Below are positions 39,471 through 63,999 of a stretch of DNA of 64,000 nt, one piece after another (positions within the stretch are counted from its first letter, which is position 1; each line of letters starts with the position of its first letter). The notes beneath the pieces are model-generated. The model saw only the letters and a program-made list of their open reading frames with translations, ran no database searches and was not told the origin of the DNA. Both the position numbers and the translations under genes were made by a program. The stretch covers positions 6,624,001 to 6,688,000 of the forward strand of contig CM000151.3 in assembly GCA_000004695.1 (NCBI GenBank), read 5' to 3'. This DNA is from Dictyostelium discoideum. Lineage: Eukaryota.

Positions 39471-41132
39471 TTATAAAACAATATTACCATGTTTTTTAGT
39501 TGGATTTGATAATTTTTTATTTTTAAGAATTTCTAAATCTTCACAAATGTATTGACGAGACATTCTTGGTGGGATGATATCATCAATGAAACCTCTACGA
39601 GCAGCTGGTAATGGATTAGCAAATTTATCATTGTAAATTTGTTCTTGTTCTTTGATGTCACCTTTGCCTCTAAAGATGATTTCTACGGCACCTTTTGAAC
39701 CCATGACAGCGATTTGACCGGTTGGCCAAGAGTAATTGGTATCACCACGAAGATGTTTGGATGACATAACATCATAGGCACCACCATAAGCTTTACGAGT
39801 GATAATTGAGATCTTTGGAACGGTAGCTTCAGCGTAAGCATACAATAATTTAGCACCATGTCTAATGATACCATTGTGTTCTTGATTAGTACCTGGAAGG
39901 AAACCTGGAACATCGATGAGAGTTACAATTGGAATATTGAAACAATCACAGAAACGTACAAAACGGGCGGCCTTAACAGAGGCATCAATGTCTAAACAAC
40001 CTGCGAGTTCTTTTGGTTGATTGGCAACGAAACCAACAGTACGACCCTCCATACGAGCATAACCAACGATGATATTCTTGGCAAACTCTGGTTGAATCTC
40101 AAAGAATTCTCCTTCATCAACGATACGTTCAATGACTTCTTTCATATCGTATGGTTTGTTTGGATCGTCTGGAATGATTTGATCCAAGACATCATCTTCA
40201 CGAGATGGTGAATCGAATGCTTCTCTCATGGCTGGTTCATTTGGATTTGATGGGAGGAGAGTGACAAATTCACGAACTCTCTTTAAGGCATCGATATCAT
40301 TGTCAAAAGCAAGATGGGCAACACCAGATTTGGTGGTATGGATTTTAGCACCACCTAAACCCTCTTGAGAGATCTCTTGATTGGTGACAGATTTGACAAC
40401 ATCTGGACCAGTGACAAACAAGTAACTGGTGTCCTTTACCATGAATACGTAATCGGTGATGGCTGGTGAATAGACGGCACCACCAGCACAAGGTCCCATG
40501 ATGACAGAGATTTGAGGAATGACACCACTTGCCATAACATTACGTTGGAAAACTTCAGCATAACCAGCCAATGAAGCGATACCTTCTTGAATACGAGCAC
40601 CACCACTATCGTTTAAACCAATGACTGGTGCACCAACTAACATTGCTTTATCCATGATCTTGCAAATCTTTTCAGCATGTGCTTCAGAGAGTGAACCACC
40701 ATTGACTGTACTATCTTGACTGAATACAAATACCAATTTACCATTGATTGTACCATGACCTGTTACAACACCATCACCTGGTGTCTTTTCAACGTTGAAA
40801 TCAGTACAACGATGGGTTACCAACATATCGTACTCTCTAAATGATCCATCATCCAATAAGAGATCCAATCTTTCACGTGCTAATAATTTACCTTTACCAT
40901 GTTGAACATCAATCTTCTTTACACCACCTCCTAATTGTGCTCTCTCTGTTTCTTCTTGAATTCTACCATTTATTCTTTCAATTGTTGATTCATATTTTAC
41001 TGCTTTGAATGGTTCTTTTGCTGGTGTTGGTTTACCTGTAGCAAAACTTTTAATACCTTGTGATGATACATTTTTACAATTCTTATTCAAAAATTGAATA
41101 GTATTTTTATTTAATAATCTTCTTGATAACAT
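39471..41132 (-). CDS. pccB: Propionyl-CoA carboxylase beta chain (carboxyltransferase), mitochondrial precursor, 553 aa
   Basis: Full-length collinear similarity to PCCB (…[123 protein letters not shown]…). The N-terminus is basic (MLSRRLLNK). Confidence 0.9.
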
Positions 41133-41217
41133 CTTTTTCTACCTCCTTTTTTTATCAAAAAATTAAAACAAATAAAAAAAAAAATAAAATAAAATGATTT
41201 TTTGAATGATGGAATGA

Positions 41218-41249
<32 letters not shown>

Positions 41250-41749
41250 AAAAAAAAAAAAAAAAAAATTAAATTTTTAAAATTTCAAATTTATAAAAAA
41301 AAAAATAAAAAAATAAAAAATAAAAAAAAAAAAATTATTTTATTATTTGATCACTTCATCTTCATCATATTTTTTTTTTTTTTTTTTTTAACAAAAAATA
41401 TTTAAATATTTATAATTTCTTTGTTTTGTTTAATATAGAAGAGTAATCAATTGATAGTGATGAAATTAGAAGTGGGGGTGGAATGAAAATGGACCAATTA
41501 AATTAAAATATTTCAATATAAAGAATTTTTATTTTATTTTATTTTTTTTTTCACTTGTTTATATAAATTTCAAATAAAAATAAATCAAAAAAATAAAAAA
41601 AATCATTTTAATCTCCAAAAGTTTATAATATTTTTTTTTTTTCCATTTCCTTTTTTTTTTTCCTTTTTTTGGAGGGTATGTTACTATTGATAAATATCAT
41701 ATAATTATGTTATCTAACTATTGTTCTTAGTAAGTATCGAAATTGGAGA

Positions 41750-41804
<55 letters not shown>

Positions 41805-41958
41805 AGCCCAGATATGTTGAAAAAATAATTAACAATTTTCTTTTTATTTTTATTTTTATTTTAATCAATAATCATTTTAATCACCAAAAGTTTATAAAAT
41901 ATATTTTTTCCTTTTCCTTTTTTTTTTTTTTTTTCTTTAAAATAAAAAAATAAAAAAA

Positions 41959-42005
<47 letters not shown>

Positions 42006-42021
42006 AAATTAATTATTAAAA

Positions 42022-42639
42022 ATGAAAAATCTATTTATATATACATTATTATTATTTTTATTTTTATTTTCATTAATAAAAGTAAAAAGTCAATCGTTAT
42101 CTGGTTTTCCAATTTATTGGTAGGTTTATTTATTTTATTTTATTTATTTTTATTCTAAAAAACAATTATTTATTATTTTTCTACTTAACAGGCCATGTTT
42201 TCCGTCTTGTGAGCCTTATGGATATTGTGATGATTATAATGGAAAATGTGTGTGTGAAAAATATTCGACTGGTTTTGATTGTAAAAAAAATTTTAATTTT
42301 ACATCCATTACACCTGCTTTTGTAACTGGTATAGTTTATTTGAATGGTGATTTTTCAAATATTTTTGATCGCAATTTAACAATTGATATAGGTAGTGGAC
42401 AATGTAATATTACCAATAAAAATGAAACAGTTATAGAATGTATAGTTGGACCAGGTGAAGGTTCTCATAGTTTTGTCATTAGAAATGATTATTTAGTGCC
42501 ATTTGTAACTACCTTTGAATATAAATATTTTACTTATCCACTTGGTTGTTCATCTCATGGTGCTTGTAATAAATATAATGGATTATGTGATTGTAATATT
42601 GGAACTTATGGTAATCAATGTTACCAAGAAGATTATTAA
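42022..42639 (+). CDS. Secreted EGF-like + IPT/TIG domain protein, 2 exons, about 181 aa
   Basis: Exon 1 42022..42119 (signal peptide; donor GTAGGT), exon 2 42192..42639 (acceptor aacag). Cys-rich EGF-like module (CFPSCEPYGYCDDYNGKCVCEKYSTGFDC), IPT-like fold (ITPAFVTGIVYLNGDFSNIF...CNITNKNETVIECIVGPGEGSHSFVI), second EGF-like module (CSSHGACNKYNGLCDCNIGTYGNQC). Confidence 0.6.
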
Positions 42640-42699
42640 ATAAAAATAAAAAAATAAATAAATAAATAAATTAAATAGATATAACTATTTTACATAAAA

Positions 42700-44188
42700 A
42701 GTTCAATTCAATATACAAAAGGTTTAAATTGTGACCTATTAAATGCATCAATATCATCAGTTGAAACACCAACAATTGATGGTGGTGTCGTTAAATTATT
42801 AGGTGATTTTAAACATATTTTTAGTATTCTGGGAAATATTGAAATTTCAATTGGTAATTCAATTTGTAATCAAATTCCTATGGAAAATACACAATTCATA
42901 ATTACATGTCAATAGAACCTGGTTTTTCTAATAAAACAATTACTTTATCTGATGGAAATGGAGCAACATTATCATATAAAGGATTTTATTACCGTTGGCC
43001 ATGTCCCGTTCCTTGTAATGATTTTAATGGAAAATGTGTGTGAAAAATATTTAACTGGTTCTGATTGTAAAACTCTAACATCAGTTACACCAACTTTTGT
43101 AAGTGGGGGAAACGTTTATTTAATTGGCGATTTTTCAAATGTTTTTAATCTCAATTTAACTATTCATTTAGGTGATCAACAATGTAGAATTAACAATATT
43201 AATCAAACAGTTATAGAATGTGTTATTGGGCCAGGTGAAGGTTTTCATAATGTTACAATTTCAATCAATGTTATATTAACATTTAAAACTATAGATACTC
43301 CCTTTGAATACAAATATTTTACTTGTCCACTTAGTTGTTCATCACATGGTACTTGTAACAAATATTATGGATCATGTGATTGTAATATTGGAACTTATGG
43401 TAATCAATGTCAATTTTTTGAATGTCCATTAAATTGTTCAAATCCAAATGGTGCATGTGATAGTAAAACTGGTATTTGCAACTGTGATGATAAACATGGT
43501 GGAGAATCATGTAATTTTATTTTATGTCCATTACATTGTTAAACTCCAAATGGTGTATGTGATGGTAAAACTGGTACTTGTAATTGTGATTATAAACACG
43601 GTGGTGAATCATGTGATTTTACTTTATGTCCATTTAATTGTTCAACACCAAATGGTATATGTGATGGTAAAACTGGTATTTGTAAATGTAATAATCCATA
43701 CACAGGAGAAGCTTGTGATTTAATTATTAAATGTAAACAAGAATGTTCTTTAAAATATGGAAATTGTGATACTCATACACAAGATTGTATATGTGATACT
43801 CAAACCAGAGGATTATCATGTGAAGAATCAAGATTATTAATCGAATCAATAGAATTAACAATTTAGATGGTGGTACAAATACAATAGTTGGATATTTTGG
43901 TAGAACAACATCATTATTAACAATTAAAATAGGTGCTTCACAATGTACAAATATTAAGGTATTTAATGATACAACATTAAATTGTTTCATTGGTCCAGGA
44001 GAAGGAACTCATAATGTAACGATTACAGATGATGATCTTTCATTTACTGCTATTAATAAGTTCCAATACATTGGAGAAAAAATCAAAAAAATCAAAGATA
44101 TCAGGTGGTACAATTGTTTGAATAACTGCTGGTTGTGTTGTTGGTCTATCAGTACTTGGAGCAGGTAGTTATTAAAAACTTAATCATT

Positions 44189-44190
<2 letters not shown>
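42700..44190 (+). pseudogene. Degenerated paralog array: IPT/TIG + tenascin-type EGF repeats + C-terminal TM segment, disrupted by frameshifts and nonsense codons
   Basis: The same domain logic as 42022..42639 is repeated and extended (4 EGF repeats CPLNCSNPNGACDSKTGICNCDDKHGGESC…, 3 IPT units, hydrophobic tail GGTIV.ITAGCVVGLSVLGAGSY). Lesions: TAG at 42913-15; a 2-bp loss in a (GT)n run creating TGA at 43040-42 (tgtgtgtga versus tgtgtgtgtga in the intact gene); TCA>TAA at 43540-42 within CPLHC*TPNG; frame shifts near 43860 and 44110. Confidence 0.65.
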
Positions 44191-44242
<52 letters not shown>

Positions 44243-45752
44243 TAGATAAAAAAAAGAATTCATTCAACTTGTAATTGCCACCAAAATATTTAAATAATAA
44301 TAATTTAAAATAAAAAAAAAAATAAATAAAAAAATACAAAATTAAAATCTTCTTTTTTCTTTTTTCTTTTTTATTGTATTTTAAATAAAGTATAACTACC
44401 ATAATATTCATATTTTAATATTATTTAAAAAAACATTTTTAATAATTAAAATATCTTACCAAATGATTGTCTTTTATCACCAATTTTTATAATTTCCAAT
44501 TAATTAATTAATGGGGTGGAGGGGTGGGGGTGGGAGGGGTAAAAAAATTGATATTTACATAAATCATAATTGTACATGACAATTTTTTAAAATAATTAAT
44601 TTGATTGATTCATCATAAAAAAAAATTAAATAAAAAATTAAAAAAGAAAAAATTAAATCGGCAATTTTAACAACAACAAGAACATTTCGATAAGATCATA
44701 CATTAATTGCAATCACACACAAACACCCAAAACTTAATTACGCACGTACACCACGACACACTAACATAAAAAATTATTAAGAGAAAAAAAAAAAATAAAA
44801 AAAAAAATAAAAATTAAATAAGTAGAAAATAAATAAAAAATTAAATCACTATTTCAAACATAGCATTTTATTAAGTTACAATTTCTGAATAACAATCACA
44901 CACTTTCTCACTCTCTACCAGTTTTGTTCTATTTAACAAATAAATACATTGTGGTGGGTGTGTGAGAGAGAGTGAGGTGATAGTGTGTGACAGTGTGTGT
45001 GTGAGTGGTATATATTAACCTAATTAAAAACTTTTTTCTACACATCAAACAATATTAAAAGGTGGTAAAAATCACTAAATAAAATTAAAAACCATTTAAT
45101 TTTTATCTCGAACAACAACTCCACCACACATATATAGATAAAATACATATAGGTCTACCCCTTTCTTTTTTTTATTTTTTATTATTTTTTTTTTTTTAGT
45201 TTTTTTTTTATATAAAAAAAAAAAAACAACATATAACTGATGATAAAATTTTAACCTTGTTTAATATTATTTTTAAAAATTTTTTTATTTTTTTTTATTC
45301 ATTATTTATTTTTAAAATATTACTTTAAATTAATATTAAAACAATTATTATAGCTTGTGTATTTTATCTGTGCATAAAATTAAATATTAATAAATTAAAA
45401 TTACAATTGTGTGTAATTTTTTAAAAAAATTAAAATAATTATTTTCAATAGCTAATAATAACAATTCCTTTTATAATTTTAATTTTAAAAATAAAATAAA
45501 ATAATTTTAATTTGAATTATTTTCCAATTAAAAATAAATTATTTAATATATATATATATATATAATTTTATTTTAATAAAAAAGCAATAGAAAGTGATAT
45601 AGTTGTATATCCTAATTATTTTTAAAAAAAAAATTATATTTTTAAAAAATTAATATATTAAAAAAAAAAAAAAAAATAACAAAAATTAATAAAAATAAAT
45701 AATTACTTAAAAGTTATATATACTTAATTATTTTTTTAAAAAAAGAATAAAA

Positions 45753-46914
45753 ATGGGAAGCCAATTTAGTGTTTTAAATAGAAAATGGTTAATTGAAAGA
45801 AGTATTATGATTGAAAAAAGGAAAAGAAGATCAAATAAATTAATAAAAATTTTAATGATGGGTAATGAAAATTCAGCTAAAAGTACATTTGCTAAAAAAG
45901 TTAAATCAATTTATCAAAGTGATAAAATTGAAAATTCCGATGCCAATTCAATTTTACCATATATTAAATTATATTTATCTAATAGTTTCAAAGATGTTAT
46001 AAAATTTATTCAACAACATCCACAATCACCAGATACAAAACCAATGGTTTCAACACAATTAGGAATAATAGCATGGGATAAATTATCAAGTTTTAATTAT
46101 ATTCCATTTAATTTTAAACCAACAAAAGAATTGGCAAAATATATTTATGATATTTGTCATGATCCACTTTTTAAAAGTTATATTTATCCAATAATTTCTT
46201 CAAAAAGAGAAGATGCATTTTAGTATGTTTTATTATAATAATAATTTTTTTAATTTTTTTTTTAAATATAGTTATTAATTATTTAAATTTAATTTTATTA
46301 ATAGTTTAATTGAAAATTGTAAAAGAATGTCAAATGATGATTATATACCAAATGATGAAGATATAATTAGATGTTCAAAAAATAATCAAAGTGGAGTATT
46401 TGATACTAAATTAGAGATTGGAAAAAGTGAATTTGTATTTGTTGATACAGGTAATCAAAAATGTGATAGAAAGAAATGGGTTCATCAATTTGAAGATGTT
46501 GATATAATATTATTTTTTTTGGCTTTAGATGAATTTGATTTACCACCTGATGAAATTAAATCACAATCACAATCAGTTCATGATTGTTATAATAAATTAA
46601 ATGAAAATATATTAGTATTTGATGAAATTGTAAATAATCACTTCTTTTCAAATACACCCGTAATTGTTTTATTTAATAAAAAAGAACAATTAATTGAAAA
46701 ATTAAAAACAACAACTTTTTCACAACATTATCCAGATTATCAAAGTAATTCAAATAATCCAAACGACATTTTTTCTTTTATTTCAAATCAATTTAAATTA
46801 AGAGATCATTTTCCATTAAACAAACGTTTATTTATTCATTCTTTTAATTCTTCAGATACTAATCAAATCGATTTCTTTCAATATGTTAAAAAAATATTAG
46901 AAGATACAATTTAA
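45753..46914 (+). CDS. Heterotrimeric G-protein alpha subunit, divergent, 2 exons, about 359 aa
   Basis: Exons 45753..46222 (donor GTATGT) and 46305..46914 (acceptor taatag). MGSQFS (myristoylation-type N-terminus). Switch/G-box regions DEDIIRCSKNNQSGVFDTKLEIG, DTGNQKCDRKKWVHQFEDVDIILFFLALDEFD, VLFNKKEQL. The P-loop reads IKILMMGNENSAKST rather than the usual GAGESGKST. Confidence 0.75.
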
Positions 46915-47138
46915 ATAATAATAATAATGATAAAAAAAAAAAAAAAAAAAAACAATAAAAAATAAATAATAAAACTAAACTTGTAAATAATTTCTTTTAT
47001 ATATAAGATATATACTTTTAAGTATATTTTTTAACAATATTTGTTTTTATTTCTCATCAAAAAATATACAACATATATATATAAAAACAAAAACCTTTGC
47101 TTTTTTTTTTTTTTTTTTTTTAATTAGAATTTAAATTT

Positions 47139-50100
47139 TTAATTTCTTCTTTTTCTTTTATTTAAAATATAATTTTCTTGTAATAATTGGGACTGAGAAG
47201 GATAAAATTGTTGTTTAATATATTTTGAAGTAAAAGTTGGAATTAAAGAAATGAAAATCATAATTATTACCATTAGATAGAATTGAAGTAATGATAATGA
47301 AAAATTAAATACTTGATAAGATTGAGGCATTGAAGGTAACATAGAATTTGTAATTAAAGCTATAATTATATATAATAAAATACTACCCCAAATACCAATA
47401 TGAACAATGAAATTCCAATATTTTATATCTAATGCTGCTTGAAGTAATATTGAAATCACAGAGAAAGAAGCACAATAAGAACCCATTATAGCAAGTCCAC
47501 CAATTTTACCATACTGGTTTAATATATTATCATCTAAAAATAAAAGATATAAACCAAAATACATTACTACCGATTGATAAAGTCCACCTAATACTGATCT
47601 TGCAATTGTAAGATACTGGAATTGTTTACCATTTTGAACCTCTAAAAATAAATGTGGATTCTTTTCTAAAACTCTTTCATTTACATCTTTTTCAAAAAGT
47701 GCCATGAAATAAGGTGGAATTGCAGTGATTACAGTATTAAAAGATGTAATGATAGCATCATCGAATAAAGTTTGTGATGACCAACCACTATGAATTGAAA
47801 ATAGAAATTGAATGAAAAAGAAGGTCATATTCTTATAAAATGAGTATCTAATACATGCAGCATTCCTAATCATTGAATAACGACCATGAATTGTAATTAA
47901 TCTTGATAAATGTCTAAATCTTAATAAACTATAGTCAGATGCACGTGATGCTTGTGATCCTTCATTACCAAATATTCCAATTCCAATATTTGCTTCTTGA
48001 ATCATTGAAACATCATTTGCACCATCACCAATTGATAAACAAACCTCTTTTGTATCCTTTTTAACCATCTTTACAATTAATGATTTTTGAATTGGTGTAA
48101 CTCTACAACAAATTACTGAATGACATTTCTTTGCAATTGATAAAAATTTATTTTCAAATTCTAAAAATATAAATATTAATGATTCACCATCAATTACTAA
48201 TGAATAATTATTATTATTATTATTTAAATTATTATTATTATTATTACTATTATTTAAATTATTATTATTATTATTTTCAATTTCATTTAAATTATTAATT
48301 ATATTATTTAATTGTTGTTCACAATTATCACGTGAATTTGAATTAATAATAAATAATTGATTTGAATGAGAAAGTAATTTACAAGAATAACCAATATTAA
48401 TTGCAGTTTCTTGTTTATCACCAGTTATAATCCAAACTTTAATATTTGAATTTAATAAAAATTCAATTGTTTCAGGTACACCATCTTGTAATTTATCTTC
48501 AATAGCAGTACAACCAATTAAAGTTAAATCATTTTCTAATTGGTTATTTAATTCTTCAATTTGCTCTTCCCTATTTTCAATTGAATTTAATATTGAATTA
48601 TATTTTTCAAACCATTGATTAAATTGATCAATTTCAATTTCTTTCATTGCTAATATTAATGTTCTTAAACCTTCATTTGAAAATTCTTTAATATGTTGAG
48701 TTGTTTTTTCAATTATTAATTGATTATTATAATTTATTAAACCATTATTATTGATATTATTATTATTATTATTGATATTATTATCTTGTTTTAATCTTGA
48801 CATCATTACAGAATCAGCACCTTTTGAATATAAATAAATTTTATTTGTTTCAATATCTTTTAAAACCACTGACATTCTTCTTCTTTCAGATGTGAAATCC
48901 ATTGAAGTTAAGAGTTTAAAAGTTTTTTCTTTTTTTAAAATTTGGATTTTAATTTCACCATTATTTCTCTCTTTGAAAATGAATTGATTTAATTTTGAAC
49001 AATTTAATAAAGAAATTTCATCGGGTGATGGTGATTGATAAATTGCAATTCCATCTTGATCTAATTCAGAAACAGCAGAATGACAAGTTGTCATATTAAT
49101 TAAAAATTCTTTTACAAATTTTTGATCAATAGTTTCACCACCTTCAGATACAATCTCTTCTAATTCCATTGATGATGATTTGTTTTTAATTTCATTTAAT
49201 AATTGTGATTCATTTGGTGATTGATAAATTTTACCACCAATTGAACATTTTTTAAAAATCATTTTATTCTCTGTTAATGTACCAGTTTTATCAGAGAATA
49301 TATATTTAACCAATGCTAATTCATCATTTAAATTACTATTTTTTACAGTCATATATTTATGTACAATTTTATTTTCTCTACCACTACCACTACTGTCGTC
49401 GTCTTTAAGAATTTCTGATTTTAAATTATCTTTTGATATTGATTTTGAAATTGATGTTGATGATATTGATTTTGTAAATTGTTTTTGTTGTTGTTGTTGT
49501 TGTTGTAATTCTAAATCACCATTATTTTGATTTTGATTTTGATTTTGATTATTTTGATTTTGTTCATATTGTAATAGTTGCTTTCTATATTGTTTTTCTT
49601 TATAACTCATTAATAGATCGAATTGCATAAAACCACCTTGTGAAACTTTAACAATTTCCAATGTAATTAATAATGACATTGGTACTAAAAACGATAAGTA
49701 TGCAAAATAAGCGAAAAATGTTTTAACAATTACTAATCCAATTGAGTCTGGTTCTTCATTTATCCAAAGATACCAACTTTTATTAGTTGTACGTTCTGTT
49801 ACTAATGTTCCAACAATTGTTGATATTATTACTAATATCATTTTAAATATAAATATACCAATAACTGATTTACTAATCATTTTTTCAACTGTTGAATATT
49901 TTGATGGTGGACTCTTTTGATTTAAACTTAATTTTGTATCTCTACCACAATAAACTACAATACCATAAATAAATTCTGTATTTCTTAATGTTGATCCTCT
50001 TAATAATAATTGTTTTTCTGATAATGATATTGTTGTTATTTCTGTTGTTGTGGTGGTTTTTAAATTTTCTTCAATATTATCATTATTATTGTTTTCATTG

Positions 50101-51100
50101 TCATTTTCTAAATTTAATATACCTTTAAATTTATATAAATTATTATTTGGGAATTCACATTGAATATTACCTTTTAATTTTATAAATTGTTGTTGTTGTT
50201 CTTGTTGTGATTCATTTAAATTTAATGATATATTTTTAAATTTTGAATGTGTTTCATTACATGATTTAAAAATTTTTAAATTTGATTCACCATCGAGTTC
50301 ACTAGTTTCTACAAAACATACACCATCGCCTAATGATGAAGAACTTAATAAAATTATATCTGCAGGAATCGATTGATTATTATCTATCTTTATAATATCA
50401 CCAACTTTTATATTTTTACTTTTAATTAATTTAAATTTTGATGATTCTATATCATAATTTTCTTGTTGTTGTTTTTGTGGTAATGGTGTTGTTGATGATG
50501 ATAGTGGTGGTTGTTGTTGTTGAGGTATTGGTTTTGGAAGTTGATATATTAAATATTCTTTATAATTTGATGATTTATCCGCTCTATATCTTTTAAAATC
50601 TTCGTACGCTTCTTTAATAGCTGTTAACCCAACAATCAAACCTAATGGTAATATAGTAGTTGATGGATCCAATGGACTAACTTCTGGAATTAATGTTATT
50701 ACACTAACAATTACAAAATAAATCTTTTTTTTGAAAAAAAAAAAAAAAACAAGAGTTAATTAATAATTTTATTTTATTTTATTTTATTTTATTTTATTTT
50801 ATTTTATTTTATTTTATTTTATTTTATTTTATTTTATTTTATTTTATTTATAATGTTATTTATTATATTAGTTTATATTACATTTGTATATTTTTTGAAT
50901 TGTTCAAATAAATTTTTAAAAATAAAATTATATCTTGTATATTTTGTGGTTGAAATTTCATTATCAGAAAATAATGATTTTATTTTTTTTTCGTTGTTAT
51001 TTGAAAAAAAAAAATTATTTTTAAAAGTATTAAAATAAATATTTGGATATGTCGTTCTCTTTTTTTTTAAATTTCTTTTTTTTTTATTAAATATTTTCAT
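47139..51100 (-). CDS. P4-type ATPase (phospholipid-transporting flippase), 2 exons, about 1267 aa
   Basis: Exon 1 51100..50882 (MKIF...ISTTKYTRYNFIFKNLFEQFKKYTN; donor GTAATA). Exon 2 50723..47139 (acceptor aaaaaag; IYFVIVSVITLIPEVSPLDPSTTILPLGLIVGLTAIKEAYEDFKR...). Motifs DKTGTLTENKM, TGDKQETAINIG, GDGANDVSMIQEANIGIGI. The track ORF lacked the TM1-TM2 exon. Confidence 0.8.
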
Positions 51101-57537: not shown

Positions 57538-60500
57538 TTAAATATCAGATTTCCATGAACTGATTGAAACTGATCTTTGATACCAATTTTGTTTTGAAGT
57601 TGATTGATCATATGGTAAATCTATAGAGAATAATAATTCCGATCTAGTTTCATTGAGATAGACTGGTACAGATAGTTTTGAAGATGAATTGTTAAAGATT
57701 GGATCATCTTTATCTTTCCAAGTTAAAGTAGCGATTGAAATTGGAGTTGAGAGGATATCGGTTGGTGTGAGTTGATCATTGTTCCAAACAGCACCTTCTA
57801 AAGCCATACCTTTAACATTGAAACTAGCACCACCTTCTGAAGAGATTTTACCCAATGAGGAAGCGTGTAATCTAAGGTTTTCTAAGGACCAACCATTCAA
57901 TTGAGAAGCGGATTGTCTAGTAGCGGTAATGTAAGCTTCTGGATTTAATAAACCACCCAACCAAACTTGAATGGAACTATAATCTGAACTTTCTGAAATC
58001 TCTGATAATTGTTGCATTCTCTTTGAGAAATCAGAGATCCAAACTGAAAGACTAATGGTTTCAGGTACTGAATACCATTTCCATTCTTTTGGAACGATAC
58101 CTTTAGAGATTGAAGTGGTAAGTGAACGAAGATAATTGGTTGATTTAATATTACCAGAAATTAGTTCTAAAAGATTTGCGAGATCATTGGTAATCTTTTT
58201 AACTAATTTACCACCAGTTGAAATTTCTCTTTCAAAGCAACGGAATAATGGATCTTTAATATTTTGAGTGGTTCTCTTTAATTGTTTCAATGGTTTTGGT
58301 AAGAGTTTAGTCCATTCAGTGATGGTTGCTCTAAGTTTAGCTTTACCTTTATCTTCTGATGATGATGATGATGATTCTTTCTTTGAACTACCACTAACTT
58401 GATCATCTTCACCATCTTCTTCAGATGATTGCATTTTTTGGAGATCATTAATCATCTTTCTAGCTTTATTTGACAAGAGTAATGATTCAGCATTTTCAGG
58501 TAAACCTAACCAAATTGGAGTTGAAATCTCTGGTAAAGCTTCAATCCATTTCATAAAGTGAGCACGAGTTGTACCTTCTGGAACTGATAAACCAATGGAT
58601 GGTACTAATGGGAAATCTGGATTGAATGCACTTGGAGTAAAAAGTTGTTCAAGGAATGAATAAAGTAAACGCATATCAAATTCATTATCAATTCTACCAC
58701 CATAAATTGTACTACCTAAAATGGTACGAACAGCGATCCATGGAATCTTGTCTGGATCAATGTTACTTCTACCTTTACTATAGAGATCAACCCAATAATC
58801 GATTGAATCTAGGGCACCACGTAAATCGGCATCATTGAATTCAAAGAATTTAGTCCAACCCAATGGAATATAACGAAGTCTTTCTTGAATGATTGCATGG
58901 AACCAAGCTAAAAGGAAATAGATACGTGAACGTTCTGCTGGTTGTTTATCCATACGAGTTGCAGGAATACCAATAAAGGTATGTAAAAGATTAGCTTTAA
59001 CACCTGGTGGATTTTCATAAGAGAATACATTTGACATACGAAGAAGATTTGCTGGAAGAGCTGGATGAATTTCAGAGGTCATAAATAATCTAAAGCTTGG
59101 ATGTGGAGAGAGTGAATGAAGTTTCTTTTCCAATTGTACCAACCATTGTGGTGCCAAATGAATATTCTTTAATAATACCCAAGTACCAGATTTAGCGGCG
59201 GCATAAATTGATTTCTCGGCTAATTCAAAACCTTCAGGTGAACCAATAGCAAATGACTTATATTGTTTATGTAATTGTAATGCTAAATCATCGACTTTAC
59301 TTGATGCATCATAACCTGGAACTGAACATAATAACAATGGTGATGAAGATTTAACCTCTTTCTCTACAATGTTTGCCATATCTAATTCTTGAGTATTTAA
59401 GAAATCTTCACCAAATACTGAACAAACAAAACTATGAGAATATTGTAAAACTCTATCACTATGGAAAGCTTTCATTAAAAGAATTTTTCTAAAGTTTGAA
59501 ACAATGGTTGATTGTTGATTAGAAAGTTGAGCTTGAGCTACGATCCAAGATTCTGGAATGATTGGTTCACCAACTTGATCTTTACCAAAGAATTGTTTCC
59601 AATCGGAAGAGTTTTGTTGAATATGATCAACCAATTTAGAGAATGATGGAACTTGTTGTCTAAGACAAATTAACCATTTTTGTTGAGTAGTTGATAATAA
59701 TGAATCCAATTGTGGAATGGTTTCTTTGATTGATGTTAAATTATCACCACCTTTCAAAAGGAAGTCCCATTCACTTTCTTCGATTTCATTGGATGTACCT
59801 TTAACTGAAATGATAGTTAATTGAAGTGCAAATGTTAATTTATCATCATTTAAGAGTGTACGAGTTACACGATTGAAAGTCATTGAGAAAATATCTTTTG
59901 ATAAATAAACCAAACGTTCATTTGGATCTTTTTTATCGACTAAATTTGGATTATTATTAAGTAGATTATAAAAGATATCCAAGAAAGCACGTAAAGAGAA
60001 TTGGTAGAGATGGAATTGAGAAAGTTCTTCCATTGCAAAGTAAACACGTGAACATGAGAGAGCCATTGGATTATAAAGAGCTGAAACTTCACTAATTTCT
60101 TGCATAACGGTCTCGGTTTCTTCAACTTTAAGTGCAATTTCAGTGGTTTCTTTCTTTAATGTTTCAAGGGTTGAAATGACAGAATCATCATCTAAAATGT
60201 TACCAGAGGCTTGGGAAAGAGCATTCAATAAAGATTTTTCGAGAATTCTTAATTTAACTTGGAATTCACCTTGAATCTTGAGGAGATCAGAACGTTTCTT
60301 ATGAGTATCTGGTCTTTCAGTTTTAAGAGCTTCATGAAGACATTGACTTTGAAGTGAGGATGGAGTGACAGTGAAATTTACAAAGGTAACACGAGAACAA
60401 AGATCTGGAGTAAAGTGAGCGGTTGGGTCACGAGTGAACAAAAAGATCATAAAGGATGGAGAGAAATCGACATCTTGATCACCTAAACGAATGAGAATAC

Positions 60501-63500
60501 GACCACCTTTCTTACGAATTTCTTTATTGAGTACTGGATTCAATACTGGATCAATGTTTTCAACATCTTGTACCAATAATGGACAACCAAATCTGAGAGC
60601 ACTCTCTAAATTCTTCATAAATGATGAATCGAGGAAACTAGTTTTGGTAATCTTTTTGTCGGCATATTGATTCATAAGGAATTCCATGGCTTGACCAGAT
60701 GGATCTATAACCAATGGATAACGATTGAAACGTTTAAGCATGATTGCATTTTCAATACATAATTCATCGGATGGTAAAGAATTTGCATGCCAGTTAAGAC
60801 GTTCTTCTGGTTTGGAAAGGAAAGATGGTACTGATAGATCACTCTTGAATTTAATACCAACTGAATCTAAACGAATCATCCATTTTCTCATAAGGTCAGT
60901 ACGGAAGTTTTGATCAAAGAAACCAATATATGCAAGGAAAGCAGATGCTAAAACAACATCACCAACAACAGTTGACATTTGAGTGTTAAAGTTTTCACTT
61001 TGTTGTTCCCATCTACCACGTTCAGAGTTAAGATTATCTAAAAGAGCAATTGAACGATCGACCTTATTCTTGACTTTACTTGATTCGGTTTTAATTTGTT
61101 CAGTTTCACGAATTAAAGTTGCATACTCTTCCTTATAGGTGGCAATAGATTTCTCCAAGGCAGTAATGGTGGCAACGATTTCATCTTGTTTCAATTTCAA
61201 TTCATTTGCAGCGTTTTCTAATTGTTCAACCTCTTCACGTAATGGTTTAATACGATCTAAAATTTCAGAGTAATAAGTTTGAGCGGTTGCCCATTTAACC
61301 AATGGACCACAAGCTTTGGAGGCACGATTAACTGTTTCATAATCGAAACCTGGATCTTCTAAATAACCTTTGGTAATGGCTTCTCTGATTTTTGGTGTCA
61401 TCATTTTCTTTGTATCATAATTAATAATCGAGGTAATGAAATTTGGTTCCATAATCTTCTTTCTAATATCTGCCCATTCTAATTTCTTACCACCCAACAT
61501 TAAACAAACTGCTTCCATTGCCAATTTGACTGGAGTTGGTGGTTTTGGTAAAGATTTAATTTCATCCAAATGTTTCTTTTTAATGGTGGATACAGCTTCT
61601 TGAGCTTCGATAATGGCTGGTTCAGCTTTTTCTAAATCTGCATAAGCTTTAACTTTTTGAACGGCAATCTCTTTGTTTCTAACATCCAATTGAACTTGAA
61701 GTTCACGAGCATCCTTTTGTTTAATTTCAGCTGCTTGTTGATCTTGAACCATTTGTTTTAATTTTTGATTGGCTTGTTCATTCTTAACATCGAGTTCACG
61801 ATTCTTTTGAGCTAAACTAACTTGAAGATCTTTAACTTGAGCCTCAGTATCACGTAATTTCTTAAGACCAATATTGAGATGAAGTTGTTCCTCTTCTAAT
61901 TGATCACGTTTCTCATTGATTAATAATACCACTTGATTAATGAAATCCAAATAATGACGTGGAGTTACATAATTTTGACGACCTTGACGTTTAAGTAAAC
62001 GAATATTGGCTTCACCAATGGTTTGATGAATATAAACCAATGAACTTACGACTGCATCACGATGTGATGGTGGGATGGCCATTAAATTATTACCCATTAT
62101 CTCTGCTTCTTGAATGAAAACTGGTGGAGCAATGTATTGTGGATTTTCAAGATCGAGATTTCTAGTGAATTCAGAACCAACTTGGAATAAAGCTTCTGGT
62201 GACCATTCACCAAACCAATCCAAAACACAACGATTGAAAAGTGCAGGAGAGGTAGCTGAACGATTGTGGAAATCTGGACTTGCTGGATTCATTGTGAAAA
62301 CTACATGAAGATTACGACGAACTTGACTTGTAAAGTATTTGTAAAGTTCTTCTTCAGAATCTAAAATGAGACCATTTCTTTGGGCGGTTTCTTTACAAGC
62401 ATGCATGAGTGCAGTGAATTCTTCACCTTCGAAAAGACCTGGAACTTCACCACCTGCCAATAGAGTATTCATACGTTCAAGGAAAGATGATTCTAAAACA
62501 TTGGATTCATCGAAAATGAAACAAATCTTCTCTTCTTTACAACCTGCACGTTTTAATAACATACGAAGATCATCATCGAAATCAGAGGATTTATAATTGT
62601 TGTTAACTTTGATTGTATAGATTGATAAACCATTCATCCAAGCGACAAAACGTGATAAAACTGATTTACCACCACCAGATACACCAATTAAAAGTGCATG
62701 ACCTTGTGGTTGACGGAAAACACGATCAATTCTAAGAATATGATCCAATACTTCATTGAATAATACCAATGGAACATCCAACTCTTCTTCATAGAATACC
62801 TTTAATCTTGCTTTGACATATTCACGAAGATCTGAACGATTAACTGGTTGATAATCTTTGGTTAACCAATTACTATAGAGGATTGGACGTTTCAAAGCAT
62901 CTAAATTAACAGATGGGAAATGTTTAAGAGCTACTTCATCAATCTTTTTATCGGTCCATTCTTTTTCTTCAGTTTCAACGAGACGATCTTGGAATAATCT
63001 AAGAGCTTCATGGGCCCATAAACGTACTAAACCTTCCAATGTACAACCATCCATAGTTTGAATTGCCTCTAAGAGAGCACGATCCCAACGAGAGAGTTCA
63101 CGTGGTGAATAAATGTAATGAGCTTGAATATCAGGAGTGAAACGTTTTTGAGATTCACTATAGAATTCAACCATTGCATCGGTTAAATTATCAGCGAATG
63201 AACGAAGATTTGGTAAAAGTTTCATTAAGGCTCTATTAAAAGTACCATAGATTTGAGTGAGAGATGAAGTTGATGGGAAATCTACCAATAAGATTGGAGC
63301 ATGTCTAAGGAAACGATGAGTTAATTGAACACGACCAGCATCAGTTGGTGGATTACATGCACCAACGAATTGAATCTTATCCAATTTAATCCAAGTATGA
63401 TCGGATGTTCTCCAGAAACCACCTTTTTCAACCATTTGACGAATGAATGTAATAACACGTTGAGTGCCATATTTATCAGTGGATGGAAGATTGATTTCAT

Positions 63501-63999
63501 CACAAAATACTACTAACCATTTACCTAATTGAGTTGGACGAAGTACAGTTTCACCACTTGGTGTACGTTTATATTCACAATGATGATCGAATGTCTTGAG
63601 TAAAAGTTCTGGTGTTGTTGCTGAACTGAAATTCAATGAAACCACCTCAAAGTCTGGGAAAGCACGAAGTGTACTTGTGAGTGTCATGGTTTTACCAGAA
63701 CCTGGTGGACCACAAAGAATCAATGGACGATGTTCAGATAACCAAGCATGTAATACATCAACATGACGAGTTGTATCAACGGTTGGAATGACAACATCTG
63801 GTGAGGCAACTTTATGAGTTTCAACTTCAACTGATGGTACTTTATTCTTCCATAAACTCCAATTGGCATCATCAATTGATACGGAATAATCTAACAATGG
63901 AATAGTATTGGCTGGAACTGGAGTAATTGCAATGGTTTGAATGAATTTAGAGAAGTTCTCTCTTTCAACTAAACCCATACTACCACCTAAACCCCACAT
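57538..63999 (-). CDS. dhcA: Cytoplasmic dynein heavy chain, C-terminal about 2153 aa (partial; the 5' end lies beyond the window)
   Basis: Continuous 6.4-kb ORF running off the window edge. AAA+ P-loops (LILCGPPGSGKTMTL; LLIGVSGGGKSVLSRF), the stalk coiled coil, AAA5/6 and the C-terminal domain. Typical dynein motor architecture. Confidence 0.9.
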   Translation of the reverse strand: MWGLGGSMGLVERENFSKFIQTIAITPVPANTIPLLDYSVSIDDANWSLWKNKVPSVEVETHKVASPDVVIPTVDTTRHVDVLHAWLSEHRPLILCGPPGSGKTMTLTSTLRAFPDFEVVSLNFSSATTPELLLKTFDHHCEYKRTPSGETVLRPTQLGKWLVVFCDEINLPSTDKYGTQRVITFIRQMVEKGGFWRTSDHTWIKLDKIQFVGACNPPTDAGRVQLTHRFLRHAPILLVDFPSTSSLTQIYGTFNRALMKLLPNLRSFADNLTDAMVEFYSESQKRFTPDIQAHYIYSPRELSRWDRALLEAIQTMDGCTLEGLVRLWAHEALRLFQDRLVETEEKEWTDKKIDEVALKHFPSVNLDALKRPILYSNWLTKDYQPVNRSDLREYVKARLKVFYEEELDVPLVLFNEVLDHILRIDRVFRQPQGHALLIGVSGGGKSVLSRFVAWMNGLSIYTIKVNNNYKSSDFDDDLRMLLKRAGCKEEKICFIFDESNVLESSFLERMNTLLAGGEVPGLFEGEEFTALMHACKETAQRNGLILDSEEELYKYFTSQVRRNLHVVFTMNPASPDFHNRSATSPALFNRCVLDWFGEWSPEALFQVGSEFTRNLDLENPQYIAPPVFIQEAEIMGNNLMAIPPSHRDAVVSSLVYIHQTIGEANIRLLKRQGRQNYVTPRHYLDFINQVVLLINEKRDQLEEEQLHLNIGLKKLRDTEAQVKDLQVSLAQKNRELDVKNEQANQKLKQMVQDQQAAEIKQKDARELQVQLDVRNKEIAVQKVKAYADLEKAEPAIIEAQEAVSTIKKKHLDEIKSLPKPPTPVKLAMEAVCLMLGGKKLEWADIRKKIMEPNFITSIINYDTKKMMTPKIREAITKGYLEDPGFDYETVNRASKACGPLVKWATAQTYYSEILDRIKPLREEVEQLENAANELKLKQDEIVATITALEKSIATYKEEYATLIRETEQIKTESSKVKNKVDRSIALLDNLNSERGRWEQQSENFNTQMSTVVGDVVLASAFLAYIGFFDQNFRTDLMRKWMIRLDSVGIKFKSDLSVPSFLSKPEERLNWHANSLPSDELCIENAIMLKRFNRYPLVIDPSGQAMEFLMNQYADKKITKTSFLDSSFMKNLESALRFGCPLLVQDVENIDPVLNPVLNKEIRKKGGRILIRLGDQDVDFSPSFMIFLFTRDPTAHFTPDLCSRVTFVNFTVTPSSLQSQCLHEALKTERPDTHKKRSDLLKIQGEFQVKLRILEKSLLNALSQASGNILDDDSVISTLETLKKETTEIALKVEETETVMQEISEVSALYNPMALSCSRVYFAMEELSQFHLYQFSLRAFLDIFYNLLNNNPNLVDKKDPNERLVYLSKDIFSMTFNRVTRTLLNDDKLTFALQLTIISVKGTSNEIEESEWDFLLKGGDNLTSIKETIPQLDSLLSTTQQKWLICLRQQVPSFSKLVDHIQQNSSDWKQFFGKDQVGEPIIPESWIVAQAQLSNQQSTIVSNFRKILLMKAFHSDRVLQYSHSFVCSVFGEDFLNTQELDMANIVEKEVKSSSPLLLCSVPGYDASSKVDDLALQLHKQYKSFAIGSPEGFELAEKSIYAAAKSGTWVLLKNIHLAPQWLVQLEKKLHSLSPHPSFRLFMTSEIHPALPANLLRMSNVFSYENPPGVKANLLHTFIGIPATRMDKQPAERSRIYFLLAWFHAIIQERLRYIPLGWTKFFEFNDADLRGALDSIDYWVDLYSKGRSNIDPDKIPWIAVRTILGSTIYGGRIDNEFDMRLLYSFLEQLFTPSAFNPDFPLVPSIGLSVPEGTTRAHFMKWIEALPEISTPIWLGLPENAESLLLSNKARKMINDLQKMQSSEEDGEDDQVSGSSKKESSSSSSEDKGKAKLRATITEWTKLLPKPLKQLKRTTQNIKDPLFRCFEREISTGGKLVKKITNDLANLLELISGNIKSTNYLRSLTTSISKGIVPKEWKWYSVPETISLSVWISDFSKRMQQLSEISESSDYSSIQVWLGGLLNPEAYITATRQSASQLNGWSLENLRLHASSLGKISSEGGASFNVKGMALEGAVWNNDQLTPTDILSTPISIATLTWKDKDDPIFNNSSSKLSVPVYLNETRSELLFSIDLPYDQSTSKQNWYQRSVSISSWKSDI

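Follow-up and report, generated by a model that had tools for sequence, protein, structure and literature searches.

The 64,000-nucleotide stretch of Dictyostelium discoideum DNA analysed here (the window) was AT-rich, with 24% G+C, and contained on its forward strand a gene for a divergent G-protein alpha subunit (Gα). The spliced product of positions 45753-46914 matched XP_643181.1 / EAL69252.1 / UniProt Q8T130 at every residue. GenBank names this protein 'G-protein subunit alpha 11 [Dictyostelium discoideum AX4]', while the UniRef name of Q8T130 is 'Guanine nucleotide-binding protein-like alpha-11 subunit', in which '-like' presumably mirrors the atypical sequence. Gα10 of D. discoideum likewise carries '-like' in its UniProt name. 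The gene symbol is gpaK (PMC12849267). It is a chromosomal gene, the longest contig bearing it being 8.48 Mb, and it has been catalogued and annotated since the genome project; the finding is a re-discovery of an atypical Gα. We describe here the eroded nucleotide pocket of its product, Gα11, and what the protein may do.

The original prediction had placed a two-exon gene exactly at this position, with the ATG at 45753 and the stop codon ending at 46914. The two-exon model is right because the spliced 359-residue product is identical to the database protein. Two open reading frames (ORFs) of 156 and 195 residues are joined into a coding sequence of 1080 nucleotides and 359 codons. The intron position is common to six species, namely D. 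discoideum, D. cf. discoideum, D. citrinum, D. firmibasis, D. purpureum and Polysphondylium violaceum. The features of the gene and of its surroundings are listed in Table 1.

Table 1. Position of gpaK, its motifs and neighbouring ORFs in the window (substitutions in Gαi1 numbering).
Feature	Position	Strand	Details
gpaK gene (Gα11), start to stop codon	45753..46914	+	translation identical to XP_643181.1 / Q8T130; Pfam G-alpha 227 bits, residues 13-354
Exon 1	45753..46222	+	codons 1-156 and 2 nucleotides of codon 157; αN helix, P-loop, most of helical domain
MGSQFS, N-myristoylation-type start	45753..45770	+	Gly2, Ser6; without Cys3 for palmitoylation; read from sequence
Basic cluster EKRKRRSNK	45813..45839	+	in predicted αN helix
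G1/P-loop GNENSAKST	45861..45887	+	residues 37-45; G42E, E43N, G45A; G40, S44, K46, S47, T48 kept
Intron	46223..46304	+	82 nucleotides, GTATGT...AATAG, phase 2; same position in 5 other species
Exon 2	46305..46914	+	Ras-like domain from linker 2 to C-terminus; stop codon 46912-46914
Switch I DIIRCSKNNQSGV	46360..46398	+	R178S (catalytic Arg), T181Q (Mg-binding Thr), one-residue insertion; G183 kept
G3/switch II DTGNQKCDRKKWVHQFEDV	46444..46500	+	DTGNQK at residues 204-209; V201T, G203N; D200, Q204 kept
G4 NKKE	46675..46686	+	residues 281-284; D272E; N269, K270 kept
β6-G5 HSFNSSD	46837..46857	+	against HFTCATD: T324F, C325N, A326S, T327S; D328 kept
Short α5 helix / C-terminus IDFFQYVKKILEDTI	46867..46911	+	4 residues beyond the Gαi1 I343 position
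Carboxyl-transferase gene	39471-41132	-	upstream neighbour; 553/554 residues
ORF between carboxyl transferase and gpaK	42952-43542	+	196 residues
Flippase ORF	47139-50672	-	downstream neighbour
ORF running off the window	57538-63999	-	>2153 residues

Gα11 matched the Pfam G-alpha profile PF00503 over its full length (227 bits, E=4e-67, curated cut-off 48.8 bits), with residues 13-354 aligned to profile positions 6-332 of 333. The best solved relatives found by HMMER against the PDB were Gαo and Gαi (~1e-32). The AlphaFold2 model, built with 32 sequences, had a mean predicted local distance difference test (pLDDT) score of 77.5 and showed an αN helix, a Ras-like sheet and a helical domain, arranged as helix 4-27, β1/P-loop, a helical block at ~61-165 and Ras-like strands; confidence was low in switch I, in part of switch II and in an insertion at residues 243-249. 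Through Foldseek comparison of the model with the PDB, all top matches were Gα chains (template modelling (TM) score 0.65-0.72, 22-25% identity), among them 1GG2 (Gαi1 G203A) and 5TDH (a dominant-negative G203A/A326S heterotrimer). Gα11 has the G-alpha fold over its full length, with αN helix, Ras-like domain and helical domain.

The myristoylation-type MG start noted in the original prediction is present as MGSQFS and fits the MGxxxS N-myristoylation pattern, on sequence evidence only; the MG was kept in all orthologues. The basic cluster in the predicted αN helix might serve membrane binding.

Pocket motifs and C-terminal tail of Gα11

Gα11 resembles the canonical Gα (human Gαi1 and Gαo) in full-length homology, in the αN helix and the Ras-like domain with its inserted helical domain, in the N-terminal MG start, in the switch II sequence RKKW(I/V)H.FE and in the catalytic Gln. 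It differs from them by G42E, G45A, R178S, T181Q, G203N, D272E, T324F, C325N and A326S, by a receptor-inserting tail that is about 7 residues shorter, and by an identity to any solved Gα of just 22-25%.

The motifs were mapped through MAFFT alignment of Gα11 with 154 other Gα representatives and human Gαi1, whose reference sequence is identical to a 354-residue PDB chain, and through HMMER pairwise alignment with Gαo. The comparison set contains no D. discoideum Gα paralogues (Gα1-10 and Gα12), and none was among the top 150 matches of the exhaustive search. Ten compositionally Dictyostelium-like matches were considered as paralogues and rejected; they were Anaeramoeba, nematode, fungal or unnamed sequences. 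The P-loop register was the same from HMMER against Gαo and from MAFFT against the PDB-verified Gαi1, and a mis-set register was rejected. An alternative exon restoring GxGESGKST was also rejected: a six-frame scan of positions 41200-47200 on both strands yielded the GNENSAKST site only.

All the strings quoted in the original prediction (GNENSAKST, IRCSKNNQSGV within residues 176-188, DTGNQK, RKKW, FLALDEFD and NKKE) were found in the protein. The P-loop, which had been called degenerate, is indeed so, with G42E and G45A. At the G45 position, Gly is found in 145 of the 147 other Gα that are ungapped there and Ala in Gα11, and the pattern GxxxxGK[ST] is lost. Switch I was said to be without its conserved Arg and Thr, and the alignment agrees (R178S and T181Q): the 154 other Gα contained 148 R and 6 K at R178, and 147 T and 7 S at T181, where Gα11 has Ser and Gln. 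The altered NKxD box was also confirmed as NKKE (D272E), the residue being Glu in Gα11 and Asp in 151/154 others.

Two of the earlier readings stood in part. DxxGQ had been described as retained; the Asp and the catalytic Gln are kept, but the invariant DxxG glycine (G203) is Asn in Gα11, compared with Gly in 152/154 other Gα, and this ranks among the most telling of the substitutions. The region described as TCAT-like reads FNSSD, in which the Asp of TCATD is kept but all else is replaced. Here the A326 position is Ser, compared with Ala in 144/154 other Gα, and the (T)CA(T) box is lost. The HSFNSSD region belongs to a clade-specific conserved motif, NKRLFIHS.

The residues of Gαi1 that contact guanosine diphosphate (GDP) are E43, S44, G45, K46, S47, T48, N269, K270, D272, C325 and A326 (PMC5022103). 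Five of these 11 are replaced in Gα11. We further scored 14 core sites (G40, G45, K46, S47, T48, R178, T181, D200, G203, Q204, N269, K270, D272 and A326) in all representatives. No deviation was found in 133 of the 154 other Gα, one in 16 and at least two in five. Gα11 deviated at 6/14, an extreme value, and only one of the 154 others reached six or more.

Altered nucleotide binding or hydrolysis, and a possible pseudo-GTPase, had been predicted from the motifs, and the comparison supports this; G42E, G203N, C325N and A326S were found in addition and the C-terminal tail was missing, so that the case is stronger than first stated. Gα11 would belong to the pseudo-GTPase class: the GTPase fold is kept, the G motifs are lost and the gene is under selection.

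The region of Gα11 nearest the family consensus was switch II (61% identity), which is also conserved within the clade. Beyond G203 it reads QKCDRKKWVHQFED against QRSERKKWIHCFEG, near the family consensus. The counterpart of Gαi1 W211, W215 of Gα11, is kept.

The C-terminal α5 tail of Gα inserts into the activated receptor. Gαi1 has 11 residues after I343, ending ...KDCGLF. Across the Gα11 clade we found only 1-4 residues after this position, versus 9-14 in about 88% of 149 other Gα. By this alignment, the receptor-inserting tail has been lost in the whole dictyostelid Gα11 clade.

One comparably eroded sequence, the only one outside the Gα11 clade, was a fungal Gα of Thozetella sp. PMI_491 (KAH8888107.1), with 7/14 core deviations (G45S, S47A, T48E, G203N, K270N, D272T and A326S). 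G203N and A326S are common to it and Gα11. It reads as an independent, similarly eroded Gα.

Orthologues, selection and erosion history

Through exhaustive HMMER and word-based searches, a small dictyostelid clade was found. The identity to D. discoideum Gα11 was 95-99% in D. cf. discoideum, D. citrinum and D. firmibasis, 67% in D. purpureum, 55% in P. violaceum, 41% in Tieghemostelium lacteum, 40% in Synstelium polycarpum, 39% in Acytostelium subglobosum and 36% in Heterostelium album (a 245-residue model). Six full-length orthologues were monophyletic in 100/100 bootstraps of a neighbour-joining (NJ) tree of 60 Gα, which is distance-based. The clade-specific motifs were YLIENCKR, FDTKL and NKRLFIHS. 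In the H. album model of that name, 'G-protein subunit alpha 11' (XP_020433202.1), α3 is followed by an unrelated tail, and G4 and G5 are missing; either the gene was mis-predicted or this copy is truncated or decaying.

The pocket differed widely within the clade. Synstelium Gα11 is fully canonical with 0/14 deviations (GSGSSGKST, R..TSG, DVGGQ, NKHD and YCAT), and in P. violaceum the sole core-site change is R178K (GSEFSGKST, DVGGQ and NKKD). D. purpureum Gα11 has the D. discoideum changes with a further S47H at the Mg2+-binding serine, giving seven core deviations. Nine were found in T. lacteum (GSENSSKNK, DTCGQ and DCKE) and four in A. subglobosum (GSNSSSKSL and NK-D). The latter two are eroded at sites overlapping those of D. 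discoideum, mostly with different residues.

Because the Synstelium and P. violaceum motifs are canonical or nearly so, the ancestral Gα11 pocket was normal; the erosion is derived and lineage-specific, the pocket having been lost later, repeatedly or progressively. The tail is absent even in the Synstelium protein with its canonical motifs, which suggests that the Gα11 lineage may have left canonical coupling to G-protein-coupled receptors (GPCRs) before the pocket was eroded.

In the NJ tree, T. lacteum grouped with the group-4 Dictyostelium species (98/100) and P. violaceum fell outside, which conflicts with the taxonomy. This placement of T. lacteum is probably long-branch attraction among eroded, fast-evolving sequences. 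A clean history of 'independent erosion' was dropped on account of the conflicting tree; D272E and E43N could be either shared or convergent among the eroded orthologues.

The pocket, with its NKKE and FNSS motifs, might also have been remodelled for another nucleotide or a small molecule, Gα11 being still a switch. The G4 and G5 changes in base recognition are conserved within the group-4 Dictyostelium species, and β6-G5 is the most conserved region within the Gα11 clade (73%), yet has 18% identity to the family. We consider such an altered ligand very improbable. Damage also extends to the phosphate, Mg and switch elements, which speaks against a working nucleotide switch of any kind. The orthologues moreover differ at these very sites (DCKE in T. 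lacteum and NK-D in A. subglobosum), a pattern more suggestive of relaxed constraint than of a specificity newly gained and shared.

For the selection analysis, spliced coding sequences were obtained from five other genomes, and the ratio of nonsynonymous to synonymous substitution rates (dN/dS) was calculated by the Nei-Gojobori method. Between D. discoideum and D. cf. discoideum dN/dS was 0.023 (dS 0.10), with D. citrinum 0.058 (dS 0.24) and with D. firmibasis 0.045 (dS 0.54). For D. purpureum and P. violaceum the ratio was 0.2-0.35, with silent sites saturated (dS 1.0 or higher). Across the five G boxes (39 codons), the close species showed 7-11 synonymous and no nonsynonymous differences (~95 sites). 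Compared with D. purpureum, the proportion of nonsynonymous differences (pN) in the G-box codons was 0.18, versus 0.20 for the remaining protein. gpaK is clearly functional and under strong purifying selection, with no decay. The degenerate pocket is constant over short time and far freer than that of an ordinary Gα over longer time.

These results bear directly on whether gpaK is a decaying pseudogene or a gene-model artefact, including one hiding a canonical isoform. For that, one may point to the two ORFs of 156 and 195 residues listed in several recent assemblies, to the H. album model of only 245 residues, and to the Logan contigs, among which no transcript-derived contig was found. With dN/dS of 0.02-0.06 at dS up to 0.54, an intact reading frame, an intron position conserved in six species and no alternative P-loop sequence in 41200-47200 on either strand, we hold it to be scarcely credible. 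A full-length cDNA has been reported as cloned, and the split ORFs are unspliced exons. A pseudogene or mis-model was rejected as essentially excluded on dN/dS, the conserved intron and the G-box codons.

In the recent assemblies of D. discoideum, D. cf. discoideum, D. citrinum and D. dimigraforme, gpaK is split into two 'hypothetical proteins' of 156/157 and 195 residues. These annotations (window 45753-46223 and 46327-46914) are both exons called without splicing. The Logan contigs with gpaK keep the intron and are thus genomic.

Proposed function of Gα11

Dictyostelium is a main model of G-protein-driven chemotaxis, with twelve Gα and one Gγ. To our knowledge, no function is known for Gα10-12. 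A single Gβ gene is present, and Gα11 has been cloned as cDNA for yeast two-hybrid with RACK1 (PMC4094278); it has also been placed in the Gα family tree (PMC12849267). We found no functional or biochemical study of gpaK or Gα11 in the literature searched. Three points appear undescribed in that literature: the parallel between G203N/A326S and the engineered dominant negatives, the loss of the receptor tail throughout the clade, and the series from canonical to eroded among dictyostelid Gα11 orthologues. These points are incremental and reveal no new kind of system.

The G45 position is the equivalent of Ras G15, of which the Ala mutant is a classic nucleotide-free dominant negative. For several of the other positions, effects have been published. 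Substitutions of G42 and loss of R178 abolish hydrolysis (bioRxiv 10.1101/795088). Gαs G226A, equal to Gαi1 G203A, shows steadier Gβγ binding and impaired affinity for guanosine triphosphate (GTP), and its GTP-induced conformational change is blocked; Gαs A366S, equal to Gαi1 A326S, has reduced affinity for GDP and the GTP analogue GTPγS (PMC5022103). D272F abolishes GDP binding, and in the G203A/A326S heterotrimer the nucleotide contacts are weakened and the Gα-Gβ interface is larger (PMC5022103).

Gα11 is thus naturally changed at both positions of the engineered Gαi1 G203A/A326S (5TDH) and Gαs G226A/A366S, by G203N and an identical A326S, and it is also changed at D272, as D272E. The engineered dominant negative has weakened nucleotide contacts and a larger and tighter Gα-Gβγ interface. 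It keeps the receptor tail and sequesters both receptor and Gβγ, whereas Gα11 is without the tail and has many further changes.

On balance, we favour the reading of Gα11 as a membrane-anchored Gα with a dead GTPase, weak or no nucleotide binding and no coupling to receptors, acting by stable protein binding, plausibly to Gβγ. In this proposal, Gα11 would hydrolyse GTP at no useful rate and would bind guanine nucleotide weakly or not at all, the GTP-induced change of switch II would be impossible, and canonical GPCR activation would be absent. As a nucleotide-independent subunit anchored at the membrane, it could hold a partner stably through its well-preserved switch II and αN surfaces. The most plausible partner would be the single Dictyostelium Gβγ, and Gα11 would buffer or scaffold G-protein signalling instead of switching. 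With Gβγ as partner, it would be the natural equivalent of the engineered dominant-negative Gαi1 (G203A/A326S) and of XLG2, a decoy Gα of plants.

Several results weigh against this proposal. Gα11 still has the key ligands of phosphate and Mg (K46, S47, T48 and D200), the catalytic Q204 and N269/K270, so some nucleotide binding may persist. The absence of nonsynonymous changes in the G boxes among the close species means that the pocket is constrained and could still bind a ligand. The αN region, which would form part of the binding surface, is divergent, with 29% identity to the family majority. Losses in Gα11 were not enriched at nucleotide-contact sites compared with other family-conserved sites (Fisher p=0.49; D. 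purpureum 0.054), and since the test is not significant we make no claim of targeted loss. The one interaction test on record for Gα11, the yeast two-hybrid with RACK1, was negative, a result that does not bear on Gβγ (PMC4094278).

The same retained residues (K46, S47, T48, D200, Q204, N269 and K270) are also what might be expected of a Gα11 that is GTPase-deficient, binds GTP and is constitutively 'on', loading spontaneously, staying GTP-bound through the loss of the arginine finger and G42, signalling to an effector and being controlled by its expression or localisation in place of a GTPase cycle. Purifying selection acts on its motif codons (0 nonsynonymous differences in ~95 sites), the R178 and G42 changes are classic GTPase-killing ones, and changes of the A326S type speed nucleotide release and so favour spontaneous loading. 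We nevertheless judge this 'always-on' state unlikely. G203N removes the γ-phosphate-sensing glycine needed for the active switch II, which the G226A/G203A mutants cannot adopt, and T181Q removes a Mg2+ ligand of the GTP state. G45A, D272E and A326S jointly predict low affinity, and the D. purpureum orthologue adds S47H at the Mg2+-binding serine.

A more specific form of the favoured proposal of stable binding comes from plants. Arabidopsis XLG2 has a GTPγS affinity 100-1000 times below that of canonical Gα with normal Gβγ binding, and was proposed to be a nucleotide-independent decoy (bioRxiv 10.1101/795088). Gα11 resembles it in the Gα fold, the Glu at G42, the missing arginine finger, the disrupted DxxG and the altered G5 Ala. 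The XLGs differ by a long N-terminal extension and by the loss of K46, D200 and Q204, which Gα11 keeps. Gα11 is not itself a plant XLG: the 359-residue protein starts directly at the αN helix and its host is an amoebozoan. The plant and amoebozoan lineages are unrelated, and the likeness is one of analogy, not of shared descent.

Tentatively, Gα11 might be a natural Gα of the dominant-negative type, a convergent amoebozoan counterpart of the plant XLG decoys, although we give this less weight than the general proposal. The receptor tail would have been lost first, and the pocket would then have been eroded in several dictyostelid lineages. Group-4 Gα11 would sit at the membrane essentially nucleotide-free, constitutively holding the single Gβγ or another partner that binds switch II. 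By this it could set the Gβγ pool for the receptor-coupled Gα in chemotaxis and development.

If a nucleotide-independent, Gβγ-holding Gα11 is true, it would be an extra buffering layer in Dictyostelium G-protein signalling and a second independent case of a Gα turned decoy after the plant XLGs. The canonical and eroded orthologues together are a natural series for tracing the loss of a GTPase switch.

Neighbouring genes

The neighbours of gpaK were unrelated housekeeping genes (carboxyl transferase, P4-ATPase, APC2 and kinesin) and gave no functional clue. The upstream carboxyl-transferase gene lies on the opposite strand. Its synteny with gpaK was found in D. purpureum, D. firmibasis, D. citrinum and D. 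cf. discoideum, with no synteny in P. violaceum.

Between these two genes, the 196-residue ORF had a sub-threshold EGF/teneurin-type match (34.7 bits versus a cut-off of 65). At the same relative position D. cf. discoideum has a gene of 237 residues without Pfam match.

The downstream neighbour encodes a flippase, a P4-type phospholipid-translocating ATPase, which has insertions rich in Asn and Gln. The listed ORF is part of a larger gene, the orthologous models having 1304-1334 residues. The ORF that runs off the end of the window contained two Walker-A sites (GPPGSGKT and GVSGGGKS) and, from these motifs alone, resembles an AAA+ protein of the dynein heavy chain type.

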